64,000 bases of DNA, from NCBI RefSeq assembly GCF_003334305.1, contig NZ_QOWS01000018.1. The stretch is one strand, 5' to 3'. A program made the translations under genes and the position numbers. This DNA comes from Escherichia coli (lineage in GTDB: Bacteria; Pseudomonadota; Gammaproteobacteria; Enterobacterales; Enterobacteriaceae). A model generated the notes under the pieces. That model had not been told where the DNA came from. It saw nothing but the letters and a program-made list of their open reading frames with translations, and did no database searches. Below, one piece after another: positions 47,523 through 53,416 of this stretch (within the stretch, counting starts at the first letter, position 1; every line of letters begins with the position of its first letter).

Positions 47523-47948
47523 GGAATGACGCGCACTATAAACATCCCGATGCGGCGTGTAAACCCCTAATTTGTTTGTTTGCCTGAAAAACAGCCAAAA
47601 GTGCATTGATAGCGTGAAATAACAGCAGATTGATCATTTCATCACCATGAATTCCTTCTCTTTTACTCGTTTAGCAACCGGCTAAACATCCCCACCGCCC
47701 GGCCAAAAGAAAAATAGGTCCATTTTTATCGCTAAAAGATAAATCCACACAGTTTGTATTGTTTTGTGCAAAAGTTTCACTACGCTTTATTAACAATACT
47801 TTCTGGCGACGTGTGCCAGTGCAGAAGGATGAGCTTTCGTTTTCAGCATCTCACGTGAAGCGATGGTTTGCCTTGCTACAGGGACGTCGCTTGCCGACCA
47901 TGTGCGCCCGGTGTCCTGCCGGTGTCGCAAGGAGAAGAGACGTGCGAT

Positions 47949-49067
47949 ATGAATAACGAGGAAACATTTTACCAGGCCATGCGGCGTCAGGGCGTTACCC
48001 GGCGCAGCTTTCTCAAATATTGTAGTCTGGCTGCCACGTCGCTGGGATTAGGCGCGGGAATGGCACCAAAGATTGCCTGGGCGCTGGAGAACAAACCCCG
48101 CATTCCGGTGGTATGGATCCACGGTCTGGAATGCACCTGCTGTACCGAATCTTTTATCCGCTCCGCTCACCCACTGGCGAAGGACGTCATCCTTTCCCTG
48201 ATTTCCCTCGATTACGACGATACTTTGATGGCTGCCGCCGGAACCCAGGCGGAAGAAGTCTTTGAAGACATCATCGCGCAATACAATGGCAAATATATCC
48301 TCGCAGTAGAAGGTAATCCGCCGCTGGGCGAGCAGGGGATGTTCTGTATCAGCAGCGGTCGACCGTTTATTGAGAAACTCAAACGTGCCGCTGCCGGAGC
48401 CAGCGCGATTATCGCCTGGGGAACCTGCGCGTCCTGGGGCTGCGTGCAGGCCGCGCGGCCCAATCCGACGCAGGCAACGCCTATCGACAAAGTCATCACC
48501 GACAAACCCATTATCAAAGTACCTGGCTGCCCGCCGATCCCGGATGTGATGAGCGCCATCATTACTTACATGGTGACCTTTGATCGCTTGCCAGATGTCG
48601 ACAGAATGGGCCGTCCATTGATGTTCTATGGTCAGCGAATCCACGATAAATGCTATCGCCGCGCCCACTTCGACGCCGGAGAGTTCGTCCAGAGTTGGGA
48701 TGATGACGCTGCCCGCAAAGGTTACTGCCTGTACAAAATGGGTTGCAAAGGGCCAACCACCTATAACGCCTGTTCCTCCACCCGCTGGAATGATGGCGTT
48801 TCTTTCCCAATCCAGTCTGGTCACGGCTGCCTGGGCTGTGCGGAAAATGGTTTCTGGGATCGAGGTTCGTTCTACAGCCGCGTGGTCGATATTCCGCAAA
48901 TGGGTACCCATTCCACCGCCGATACCGTCGGTTTAACCGCACTTGGCGTGGTGGCAGCGGCTGTTGGTGTGCACGCAGTCGCCAGCGCCGTTGACCAGCG
49001 CAGACGCCATAACCAGCAACCTACAGAAACCGAACATCAGCCAGGCAATGAGGATAAACAGGCATGA
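47949..49067 (+). CDS. hyaA: Hydrogenase 1 small subunit
   Basis: Track ORF trimmed to [25 protein letters not shown] (372 aa); twin-arginine signal RRSFLK; C-terminal hydrophobic anchor. Confidence 0.95.
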
Positions 49068-50857
49068 GCACTCAGTACGAAACTCAGGGATACACCATCA
49101 ATAATGCCGGACGCCGCCTGGTGGTTGACCCGATTACGCGCATCGAAGGCCACATGCGCTGCGAAGTGAATATTAACGATCAGAATGTGATCACCAATGC
49201 CGTTTCCTGCGGCACCATGTTTCGCGGGCTGGAGATCATCCTGCAAGGGCGCGACCCGCGCGATGCGTGGGCGTTCGTTGAACGTATCTGCGGCGTCTGT
49301 ACTGGCGTACATGCCCTGGCTTCAGTTTACGCCATCGAAGATGCCATCGGTATTAAAGTGCCGGACAACGCCAATATCATCCGTAACATTATGCTGGCAA
49401 CGCTCTGGTGCCACGATCACCTGGTGCACTTCTATCAGCTTGCCGGGATGGACTGGATCGATGTGTTAGATGCGCTGAAAGCCGACCCGCGGAAAACCTC
49501 CGAACTGGCGCAAAGTCTCTCCTCATGGCCGAAATCATCCCCTGGCTATTTCTTCGACGTACAAAATCGCCTGAAGAAATTCGTTGAAGGCGGGCAGTTG
49601 GGGATCTTCCGCAATGGCTACTGGGGGCACCCGCAGTACAAACTGCCGCCAGAAGCTAACCTGATGGGCTTTGCCCACTACCTCGAAGCTCTCGATTTCC
49701 AGCGTGAAATTGTGAAAATCCACGCGGTCTTTGGCGGTAAAAACCCGCATCCAAACTGGATTGTCGGCGGGATGCCTTGCGCCATTAACATTGACGAAAG
49801 CGGCGCGGTCGGGGCGGTCAATATGGAACGCCTGAACCTGGTGCAGTCGATTATCACCCGCACGGCAGACTTCATTAACAACGTGATGATCCCCGACGCC
49901 TTAGCCATCGGTCAGTTCAACAAACCGTGGAGCGAAATCGGCACGGGTCTTTCTGATAAATGTGTCCTCAGCTACGGCGCATTCCCGGATATTGCCAACG
50001 ACTTTGGTGAGAAAAGTCTGCTGATGCCTGGCGGCGCGGTGATTAACGGCGACTTCAACAATGTGCTGCCAGTGGATTTGGTTGATCCGCAGCAGGTGCA
50101 GGAGTTTGTCGATCACGCCTGGTATCGTTATCCCAACGATCAGGTCGGGCGTCATCCATTCGATGGCATTACCGACCCGTGGTACAACCCCGGCGATGTC
50201 AAAGGCAGCGATACCAACATTCAGCAACTGAATGAACAGGAACGCTACTCGTGGATCAAAGCGCCACGCTGGCGCGGTAACGCGATGGAAGTGGGGCCGC
50301 TGGCACGCACGTTAATCGCTTATCACAAAGGCGATGCTGCGACCGTTGAGTCGGTCGATCGCATGATGTCGGCGTTGAACCTGCCGCTTTCCGGTATCCA
50401 GTCAACGTTAGGCCGCATTTTGTGCCGCGCGCACGAAGCGCAGTGGGCCGCAGGTAAGTTGCAGTATTTCTTCGACAAGCTGATGACCAACCTGAAAAAC
50501 GGCAATCTCGCCACTGCTTCCACGGAAAAATGGGAACCTGCAACCTGGCCGACAGAGTGCCGTGGTGTCGGTTTTACCGAAGCGCCGCGCGGGGCGTTAG
50601 GCCACTGGGCCGCCATTCGCGATGGCAAGATTGATCTCTATCAGTGCGTGGTGCCGACCACCTGGAACGCCAGCCCGCGCGATCCCAAAGGGCAGATTGG
50701 CGCTTATGAAGCGGCGCTGATGAACACCAAAATGGCGATCCCCGAGCAACCGCTGGAGATCCTGCGTACTCTGCACAGCTTTGACCCGTGCCTCGCCTGT
50801 TCAACACACGTGCTGGGCGACGACGGTAGCGAGCTGATCTCCGTGCAGGTGCGTTAA
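49064..50857 (+). CDS. hyaB: Hydrogenase 1 large subunit ([NiFe])
   Basis: 597 aa; N-terminal RxCGxC ([10 protein letters not shown]) and C-terminal DPCLACSTH nickel-binding motifs; ATGA overlap with hyaA. Confidence 0.96.
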
Positions 50858-50875
50858 CAGCGAAGGAGAATCATC

Positions 50876-51583: not shown

Positions 51584-52167
51584 GCGAGCAACGCGTGGTG
51601 GTCATGGGGCTGGGCAACCTGCTGTGGGCCGATGAAGGCTTCGGCGTGCGGGTGGCGGAACGGCTGTATGCCCATTACCACTGGCCCGAGTATGTGGAGA
51701 TTGTCGATGGCGGTACTCAGGGACTGAACTTGCTGGGGTATGTCGAAAGCGCCAGCCATCTGTTGATTCTCGATGCCATTGACTACGGGCTGGAACCTGG
51801 AACGCTGCGAACCTATGCCGGAGAACGCATTCCGGCTTATCTCAGCGCGAAGAAAATGAGCCTGCATCAGAACAGTTTCTCCGAAGTGTTGGCGCTGGCG
51901 GATATCCGCGGACATCTGCCAGCACATATTGCCCTCGTCGGTCTGCAACCCGCAATGCTCGACGACTACGGCGGTAGCCTGAGCGAACTGGCACGGGAGC
52001 AACTGCCCGCTGCGGAACAGGCGGCGCTGGCGCAGCTGGCTGCGTGGGGAATTGTGCCGCAACCGGCTAATGAATCGCGCTGTCTCAATTATGACTGTCT
52101 GTCGATGGAAAATTACGAAGGCGTTCGCTTGCGCCAGTACCGGATGACACAGGAGGAGCAGGGATGA
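51580..52167 (+). CDS. hyaD: Hydrogenase 1 maturation protease
   Basis: 195-aa [28 protein letters not shown]; 4-bp overlap with hyaC. Confidence 0.93.
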
Positions 52168-52562
52168 GCAACGACACGCCATTTGATGCGTTGTGGCAAC
52201 GAATGCTGGCGCGCGGCTGGACGCCAGTCAGTGAATCCCGTCTTGACGACTGGCTTACGCAAGCGCCAGACGGCGTGGTGTTATTAAGCAGTGACCCGAA
52301 ACGCACGCCAGAGGTCAGCGATAATCCGGTAATGATTGGCGAATTACTGCGCGAGTTTCCCGACTATACATGGCAGGTGGCGATTGCTGACCTTGAGCAG
52401 AGCGAAGCCATCGGCGATCGCTTTGGCGTCTTTCGCTTTCCTGCCACTTTAGTGTTTACCGGCGGAAACTATCGCGGCGTGCTGAATGGTATTCACCCGT
52501 GGGCGGAACTGATAAACCTGATGCGCGGGCTTGTCGAATCGCAGCAGGAGCGTGCCTCATGA
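52164..52562 (+). CDS. hyaE: Hydrogenase 1 operon protein HyaE (putative chaperone)
   Basis: 132 aa; 4-bp overlap with hyaD. Confidence 0.92.
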
Positions 52563-53416
52563 GCGAAACTTTTTTCCATCTGCTGGGGCCAGGAACGCAA
52601 CCGAACGATGACAGTTTCAGCATGAATCCACTGCCGATCACCTGTCAGGTGAATGATGAACCGAGTATGGCGGCCCTGGAGCAATGTGCTCACAGCCCGC
52701 AGGTGATTGCGCTGTTAAACGAGTTACAACATCAACTAAGCGAACGCCAACCGCCGTTGGGCGAGGTGCTGGCAGTCGATCTGTTAAATCTCAACGCCGA
52801 CGATCGTCACTTTATCAATACGCTTCTCGGGGAAGGGGAAGTGTCAGTGCGCATTCAGCAGGCTGACGACAGTGAAAGTGAAATACAGGAGGCGATCTTC
52901 TGCGGATTATGGCGGGTGCGCAGACGTCGCGGCGAAAAGTTGCTGGAGGACAAACTGGAGGCTGGCTGCGCGCCGCTGGCGTTGTGGCAGGCGGCAACGC
53001 AAAATCTCTTGCCGACAGATTCGCTGTTACCGCCGCCCATTGATGGCCTGATGAATAGCCTACCGTTGGCGCATGAGTTACTGGCACATGTACGTAACCC
53101 CGACGCGCAGCCGCACAGCATTAATCTGACGCAATTACCCATCAGCGAGGCTGATCGGCTTTTTCTCTCACGTCTCTGTGGGCCGGGAAATATTCAGATT
53201 CGTACCATTGGCTATGGCGAGAGCTATATCAACGCCACGGGGTTACGCCATGTCTGGCATTTACGCTGTACGGACACCTTAAAAGGCCCGTTACTGGAAA
53301 GTTATGAAATCAGCCCAATACCGGAAGTGGTGCTGGCAGCGCCAGAAGATTTGGTCGACTCTGCGCAGCGGCTTAGCGAGGTATGTCAGTGGCTGGCGGA
53401 AGCTGCACCGACGTAA
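52559..53416 (+). CDS. hyaF: Hydrogenase 1 operon protein HyaF
   Basis: Track ORF trimmed to [20 protein letters not shown] (285 aa); ATGA overlap with hyaE. Confidence 0.92.

Follow-up and report, generated by a model that had tools for sequence, protein, structure and literature searches.

The hyaABCDEF (hydrogenase 1) operon of an Escherichia coli strain: a mosaic serT-hyaA intergenic region, a conserved hyaA leader and overlapping gene junctions

Gene content and identity of the hya locus

We analyzed positions 47523-53416 of a 64,000-nucleotide (nt) stretch of Escherichia coli DNA (contig NZ_QOWS01000018.1 of assembly GCF_003334305.1; the whole stretch is hereafter called the window), which hold the intergenic region between serT and hyaA and the six genes of hydrogenase 1. 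According to the listing of open reading frames (ORFs) and direct reading of the sequence, the six genes are co-directional on the plus strand and follow the order small subunit, large subunit, cytochrome b, protease, HyaE, and HyaF. The first gene, hyaA (47949-49067), encodes the hydrogenase-1 small subunit of 372 aa (TIGR00391, 673.7 bits; Pfam Oxidored_q6 and NiFe_hyd_SSU_C), and the second, hyaB (49064-50857), the large subunit of 597 aa (NF007550, 1443 bits versus a cut-off of 1101). They are followed by hyaC (50876-51583), encoding the b-type cytochrome membrane subunit (NF007551, 537 versus 442 bits), and hyaD (51580-52167), encoding the hydrogenase-1 maturation endopeptidase (NF007616, 441.8 versus 261 bits; TIGR00140). 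The last two are hyaE (52164-52562), for a hydrogenase-1 operon protein (NF008563, 284.9 versus 210 bits) that the K-12 annotation gives as a putative HyaA chaperone, and hyaF (52559-53416), for a HupH-type hydrogenase expression/formation protein with two HupH_C (PF04809) domains (E = 4.8e-33 and 6e-7), in agreement with the annotation of strains A7 and K-12. NCBIfam cut-offs were passed by five of the six proteins, in the case of HyaA for the subfamily model TIGR00391 and in the case of HyaB, HyaC, HyaD, and HyaE for equivalog models, and the family profile search gave no NCBIfam match for HyaF.

Over 5,894 bp, megablast shows 100% identity to E. coli strain A7, and a megablast search with 47523-53416 found the hya region in 5,426 of 5,426 complete E. 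coli genomes. The RefSeq annotations of A7 and K-12 MG1655 agree on these six genes and their boundaries, with yccA-serT and appCB on either side. We thus consider the stretch to be, with a probability of about 0.97, the canonical E. coli hyaABCDEF operon (K-12 b0972-b0977), encoding the membrane-bound, O2-tolerant (group 1d) [NiFe] hydrogenase 1 together with its dedicated accessory proteins. The original prediction, made from the sequence alone, had also named a hydrogenase-1 operon here, and genome identity, family profiles, and the A7 and K-12 annotations bear this out. Both a loss of synteny or identity with the hya region of reference genomes and a failure of the family profiles were checked for, and neither was observed; nothing contradicts the identification. 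In comparison with K-12, the genes, their order and lengths, the junction geometry, the 426-bp gap upstream, and the IscR and ArcA sites are the same, and the differences are strain-level polymorphism only; HyaA differs from the Protein Data Bank (PDB) sequence by a single substitution (Ala versus Thr at precursor residue 110). The operon, its promoter, its export signal, and its maturation features are already known, and nothing departs from the known hya system. As a wild-type hya copy, the window carries little weight as a discovery; what the analysis adds is a base-resolved map of the serT-hyaA gap, which shows a mosaic instead of one long control region. E. coli hydrogenase 1 serves as a textbook model of O2-tolerant [NiFe] hydrogenases, for "hitchhiker" export by the twin-arginine translocation (Tat) system, and for control by IscR, ArcA, and AppY.

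The sequence motifs agree with the established maturation and export of this enzyme. HyaA contains TRRSFLK at residues 17-23, its signal ends in AWA, and it passes the dedicated twin-arginine signal model TIGR01409 over residues 16-45 (26.8 bits versus a cut-off of 16.7), which upholds the twin-arginine signal claimed earlier and makes HyaA a predicted Tat substrate by both motif and profile. The signal peptide covers codons 1-45 (47949-48083, plus strand), and the deposited small-subunit PDB chains of E. coli hydrogenase 1 start at HyaA Leu46 or slightly later. HyaB carries RICGVC at residues 74-79 (the N-terminal RxCGxC NiFe-binding motif) and DPCLACSTH at 574-582 (the C-terminal DPCxxCxxH NiFe-binding motif), the latter followed by a short C-terminal extension, as had been noted, of 15 residues (codons 583-597; 50810-50854, plus strand). 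Large-subunit PDB chains cover HyaB residues 1-582 and end at His582, so that the chain ends at HyaA Leu46 and HyaB His582 fit both processing events. Removal of the tail by HyaD would fit the known endoproteolytic maturation of [NiFe] large subunits, in line with the tail itself, the HyaD profile, and the PDB chain ends. The earlier proposal of maturation by an adjacent HyaD protease stands to this extent, but hyaD is not adjacent to hyaB, as hyaC lies between them.

Group 1d O2-tolerant enzymes are defined by a six-cysteine proximal cluster, including the two supernumerary residues Cys19 and Cys120. The cysteines of mature HyaA include residues 17, 19, 20, 115, 120, and 149, that is, the six-cysteine set of the proximal [4Fe-3S] cluster, and the nearest PDB chains of HyaA are those of E. 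coli hydrogenase 1 and of the membrane-bound hydrogenases of Cupriavidus necator and Hydrogenovibrio marinus. We infer O2-tolerant catalysis from the near-identity to the crystallized and characterized enzyme. The steps of hydrogenase-1 assembly and export are established knowledge, corroborated here by motifs, family profiles, and PDB chain ends: HyaB takes up the NiFe cofactor, after which HyaD cuts off the 15-residue tail behind His582; HyaA, with its three Fe-S clusters (including the six-cysteine proximal cluster), pairs with HyaB; the Tat system exports the HyaA-HyaB dimer by means of a signal peptide that is present on HyaA only and is cleaved after Ala45; and HyaC anchors the enzyme and hands electrons to quinone.

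Related hya-type operons occur in Citrobacter, Salmonella enterica subsp. arizonae and diarizonae, and Edwardsiella, with HyaB 90-93% identical to that of the window and the same gene order and core promoter. HyaA and HyaB of Edwardsiella show 93-96% protein identity to E. coli, with four-fold degenerate sites near saturation (~0.5; four loci), and the genomic context of the operon differs in each genus. The combination of high protein identity and varying context suggests very strong purifying selection, and possibly a horizontal transfer in the past in which the operon moved as a whole, promoter and leader included. Within E. coli, hydrogenase 2 (hybOABCDEFG) is O2-sensitive and is without the six-cysteine proximal cluster. 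It resembles hydrogenase 1 in having a Tat-exported small subunit, a cleaved large-subunit C-terminal tail, and a dedicated protease (HybD), whereas the window proteins scored far below the hydrogenase-2 equivalog cut-offs (331 versus 659, 552 versus 969, and 111.5 versus 190). The operons of C. necator and H. marinus carry additional maturation genes. The C. necator HoxKGZ (PDB 3RGW) and H. marinus (PDB 3AYX) enzymes have the same group 1d architecture, with subunits that align end to end and have the same mature ends, but they are more distant in sequence.

Promoters and regulator sites in the serT-hyaA gap

The gap between serT and hyaA is a composite, unstranded feature of 426 bp (47523-47948), exactly the length claimed for it before (tRNA end at 47522, hyaA ATG at 47949), and it corresponds to IG1030936_1031361 of a previous report (PMC3141248). 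On its left lies serT, the gene for tRNA-Ser(UGA) (47435-47522, minus strand; found by ARAGORN, with an Rfam tRNA score of 57.5 bits, and annotated as serT in K-12), the divergent neighbor of hyaA. A consensus scan located TTTACA, a 17-nt spacer, and TATAGT (10 of 12 matches) on the minus strand at 47535-47563, which looks like the serT promoter. After TATAGT comes the GC-rich discriminator GCGCGTC, which stops a few bases short of the 5' end of the mature tRNA; the combination of a near-consensus promoter with a GC-rich discriminator is typical of stringently controlled stable-RNA promoters. The share of the gap taken by this promoter is the ~40-100 bp adjoining serT.

The hya promoter could be positioned from published anchors. 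An ArcA site published at -18 to +3, with sequence, strand, and position given in the supplements of PMC3798270, is matched exactly by minus-strand positions 47776-47796 of the window (TTGTTAATAAAGCGTAGTGAA), and this position puts the hya transcription start at 47794. In the mutagenic primer pPK13849 ("insertions at -17 and -19" of PhyaA), the added bases fall at 47775-47777, which leads to the same start. From these two independent published anchors, we infer that hya transcription starts at 47794. The core promoter would then consist of a -35 element TTGTTT (47759-47764) and a -10 element TACGCT (47781-47786) on the plus strand (47759-47786 overall), as judged from the start site, from the location of the -35 element inside an IscR site, and from primer pPK13849. 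This IscR type II site (47739-47767, plus strand; -55 to -27) overlaps the -35 element and is identical to the 29-bp hya DNA crystallized together with IscR in PDB 4HF1 (ataaatccacacagtttgtattgttttgt), and its part at 47742-47764 has one mismatch to the type II consensus (CCxYA-N7-TRxGG with AT-tract flanks). According to PMC8561392, IscR represses by blocking the -35 element that lies within its site. Further regulators converge on the same region. The summit of AppY chromatin immunoprecipitation sequencing (ChIP-seq) at K-12 position 1,031,990 equals window position 47800, and YdeO binds the hyaA promoter region in vivo and in vitro (PMC4222967). With the YdeO-box definition of the latter study, a motif scan found the inverted repeat TGAAAT-N15-ATTTCA at 47615-47641 (plus strand; ~-179/-158; 2 matches versus 0.26 expected), so that the box is placed here by hexamer match and not by published position. 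Fis, NarL, and NarP are also given as hya regulators in the table of PMC8910356.

This regulatory map rests on literature anchors and not on motif scans. The IscR consensus alone gave 24 matches across the window versus 16.3 expected, which is not significant, and the consensus sequences of FNR, the NarL heptamer, the ArcA direct repeat, and CRP did not occur above expectation; the published ArcA site, a poor fit to the direct-repeat consensus, could be placed only with the help of the supplement. A scan of the gap for anaerobic-regulator sites had been proposed as a check; the published ArcA site has an exact match there, and the FNR, NarL, and ArcA direct-repeat scans gave nothing beyond expectation. 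The AppY 8-mer ATGSCWGM was rejected as a site locator, being too degenerate (526 window matches, none convincing in the promoter). The regulatory steps themselves were shown in the cited literature and were mapped onto the window by exact sequence identity. Transcription of hya would start at ~47794 from a weak sigma70/sigmaS promoter, IscR occludes the -35 element in air, and phosphorylated ArcA (ArcA-P), AppY, and YdeO counteract this or activate the promoter under anaerobic, acid, or stationary-phase conditions.

With a start at 47794, 155 of the 426 bp (47794-47948) are transcribed leader and not upstream regulatory DNA. The remainder is unevenly conserved. Across the five Escherichia loci compared, identity ranged from 0.67 to 0.94 over 47523-47700 and from 0.79 to 0.89 over 47701-47738, and 47620-47738 is poorly conserved even among Escherichia species. 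The block from ~-90 to the start codon is still recognizably conserved in Citrobacter, Salmonella, and Edwardsiella, where hya lies in other contexts; serT is upstream of hya in Escherichia only. The gap is a divergent mosaic, made up of the serT promoter, a lineage-variable spacer, the YdeO, IscR, and ArcA sites around 47794, and the 155-nt leader. The number of regulators that act on it (IscR, ArcA, AppY, and YdeO, as well as Fis, NarL, and NarP according to PMC8910356) might instead be taken to mean that the whole 426 bp form a dedicated, unusually long regulatory region of hya. We think this very unlikely, as the mapped sites cluster from about -180 to +3, the 155 bp behind them are transcribed, a strong tRNA-type promoter occupies the opposite strand of the serT-proximal part, other Escherichia lineages lack 47620-47738 or carry different sequence in its place, and the core promoter and leader are kept without serT in the different contexts of other genera. 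The long regulatory region of the original prediction accordingly holds for the presence of several regulator sites within 426 bp, but not for the serT promoter part, the poorly conserved 47620-47738, or the transcribed leader.

Two observations concern the variable spacer itself. In E. albertii, E. whittamii, and divergent E. coli lineages, other or shorter sequence takes the place of the DNA that separates the serT promoter from the hya core promoter (47620-47738, compared with four loci), and a perfect 7-bp hairpin palindrome, GTTTAGC-N5-GCTAAAC at 47669-47687, is present only in some lineages.

The transcribed leader of hyaA

The 155-nt 5' leader of hyaA (47794-47948, plus strand), the start of which follows from the published positions above, is conserved above the level of synonymous sites. 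Compared with Edwardsiella, its last 83 nt show 75-81% identity, versus 47-59% at the four-fold degenerate sites of hyaA and hyaB, and among Escherichia species the leader shows 88-100% identity, versus 69-86% at four-fold sites. Indels of 7 and 10 nt indicate that it is non-coding. The leader is conserved in most species of Citrobacter, Salmonella, and Edwardsiella, while most of it (~110 nt) is absent from three Citrobacter species. A metagenome scan for further non-Escherichia hyaA 5' ends yielded two contigs, which duplicated S. arizonae and Citrobacter sp. MGH106. These comparisons indicate that the leader is under purifying selection; its conservation is real, and both DNA-level operators (e.g., NarL/NarP) and RNA-level binding sites are possible reasons for it.

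One reading of this conservation is that 47794-47948 is an undescribed cis-acting post-transcriptional control element tuning HyaA translation, perhaps a binding platform for CsrA or a small RNA, or a structure that gates the Shine-Dalgarno sequence. In addition to the excess of identity over four-fold sites and the non-coding indels, this reading could draw on three GGA motifs in the leader, one of them in the Shine-Dalgarno sequence, on the sequence-based computational prediction of hyaA as a CsrA target (PMC4066749), and on a 10-nt inverted repeat (CCTTGCTACA/TGTCGCAAGG) that reaches into the hyaA Shine-Dalgarno sequence, where a conserved CCUUGC could pair with GCAAGG. If true, leader control would add a layer to the regulation of an enzyme relevant to gut colonization and biohydrogen engineering. 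We nevertheless regard it as doubtful. An Rfam scan of 46000-54500 at E <= 1 found nothing in 47523-47948 (the only matches being the tRNA and a sub-threshold sX4 match overlapping the tRNA), the leader fold is not unusually stable (z-score 0.10), and for 14 leaders from four genera, the RNAalifold consensus was weak, with a covariation term of only -1.5. A four-helix model of the leader was rejected for showing no covariation (0.132 versus a shuffled 0.127; 87 of the 500 shuffles reached or exceeded the value), and the anti-Shine-Dalgarno pairing of CCTTGC with GCAAGG fared no better: its core is kept in the alignment without compensatory changes, and partition-function folding gave Shine-Dalgarno partners that are inconsistent between orthologues, leaving the pairing unsupported. 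Salmonella and Citrobacter have not retained the GGA motifs, three Citrobacter species do without ~110 nt of the leader, and DNA-level operators would explain the conservation equally well. The regulator table of PMC8910356, a transcriptome paper, gives NarL/NarP nitrate repression and no translational regulator for hya, and our literature search found no paper on the hya leader.

Two other features of the leader were noted. It contains four ACGT cores (p ~0.002 in a post-hoc shuffle), only one or two of which are conserved across genera and to which no meaning is assigned. A 65-aa ORF in the leader (47759-47956) was rejected as spurious, with no family matches.

Gene junctions and surroundings of the operon

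Consistent with the original prediction, in which the hyaA/B, C/D, D/E, and E/F junctions were said to overlap by 4 bp, all four were reproduced on reading the sequence, each in the form ATGA. At hyaB/C there is no overlap but an 18-nt spacer containing GAAGGAG. Each of the four overlapped starts has a Shine-Dalgarno sequence inside the preceding gene, 7-10 nt upstream (GAGGA, AAGGAG, AGGAGG, and AGGAG). When the RefSeq annotation of the entire window served as background, 4-bp overlaps were found at four of five hya junctions versus 3 of 34 other co-directional coding-sequence junctions (Fisher one-sided p = 0.002), the three being ssuB/C, ssuD/A, and pqiB/C. The enrichment persisted when only tight junctions (<=25 nt) were used as background, of which 3 of 18 had a 4-bp overlap (p = 0.017, same test).

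To place these junctions in a broader context, we surveyed 42 loci that encode HyaB relatives in species-representative genomes, with the six genes located by tblastn. The A/B junction is ATGA in all 17 Enterobacterales loci (Escherichia, Citrobacter, Salmonella arizonae/diarizonae, and Edwardsiella), and in the 16 of these that extend far enough, C/D is ATGA and the B/C spacer measures 18-19 nt without exception. Among the tabulated distant loci (Chromatiaceae and others, 64-66% identical), A/B is ATGA in seven of eight, with start codons at this distance chosen heuristically; the spacing after hyaB in the distant loci recovered is much looser than in E. coli hya.

The ATGA overlaps at A/B, C/D, D/E, and E/F probably couple the translation of successive cistrons, which would help to hold HyaA and HyaB at 1:1 and the accessory proteins in proportion. 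Coupling of the two structural subunits is plausible and is the best-supported part of the serial-coupling idea, because the A/B ATGA is conserved across Enterobacterales and in most distant loci. The remaining junctions are better described as tight packing whose exact form is not conserved.

Some weaker points of this overall picture of the operon should be set beside it. Every downstream cistron has its own Shine-Dalgarno sequence, and outside Escherichia the D/E and E/F junctions are not conserved, spanning -11 to +5 in Citrobacter, Salmonella, and Edwardsiella, with 1-bp TGATG overlaps at one or the other in some species. Upstream of the genes, the start at 47794 was transferred from the K-12 literature by sequence identity, and the hyaA Shine-Dalgarno sequence of this strain, AAGGAGAAG, differs from AAGGAGGAG of K-12 MG1655 (window 47935). 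This difference is one of four substitutions relative to K-12 in the gap, all of which lie in the leader. The AAGGAGAAG form is common to all non-K-12 Escherichia loci sampled, and AAGGAGGAG of K-12 appears to be a derived, slightly stronger Shine-Dalgarno sequence.

The canonical Shine-Dalgarno sequences at all four overlapped starts and the variable D/E and E/F geometry, together with the occurrence of 4-bp overlaps at ssuB/C, ssuD/A, and pqiB/C in the same window, would also be expected if the ATGA overlaps had arisen through genome compaction and because ATGA forms easily, with no coupling function, and the cistrons were initiated independently. This explanation is possible, but we consider it the less likely one. 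HyaA and HyaB are needed at 1:1, the overlaps are enriched over the window background, and ATGA is conserved at A/B in 17 of 17 and at C/D in 16 of 16 Enterobacterales loci, as well as at A/B in most tabulated distant loci despite ~50% identity at four-fold sites. Coupling thus remains our preferred reading, and the serial translational coupling put forward earlier is retained for the overlap enrichment and for A/B and C/D, conserved across four genera, but as a series it is broken at hyaB/hyaC, and it has to accommodate the individual Shine-Dalgarno sequences and the unconserved D/E and E/F junctions.

On the other strand, long minus-strand ORFs antisense to hyaA (48048-48911) and hyaD (51535-52182) were rejected as spurious, with no family matches; like the leader ORF, they are what GC-rich coding sequence commonly yields as a by-product. 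Downstream of the operon, neither a terminator-like hairpin nor a consensus sigma70 promoter was found in the hyaF-appC interval (53417-53549), and transcription might continue from hya into appCB-cbdX-appA; for appC, the published summit of AppY ChIP corresponds to window position ~53505. On the opposite side, a GC-rich 11-bp stem-loop at 47400-47426, between serT and yccA and flanked by T-runs on both strands, probably acts as an intrinsic terminator for serT, on the minus strand. Elsewhere in the window, the 3' ends of the convergent pairs yccX/tusE (46149-46152) and zapC/ycbX (22301-22304) share 4 bp in the RefSeq annotation of the identical strain. Mechanically called ORFs extended further upstream than the annotated starts for tusE (128 aa from 46535 versus 46478; 46149-46535) and for appC (GTG at 53544 versus 53550).

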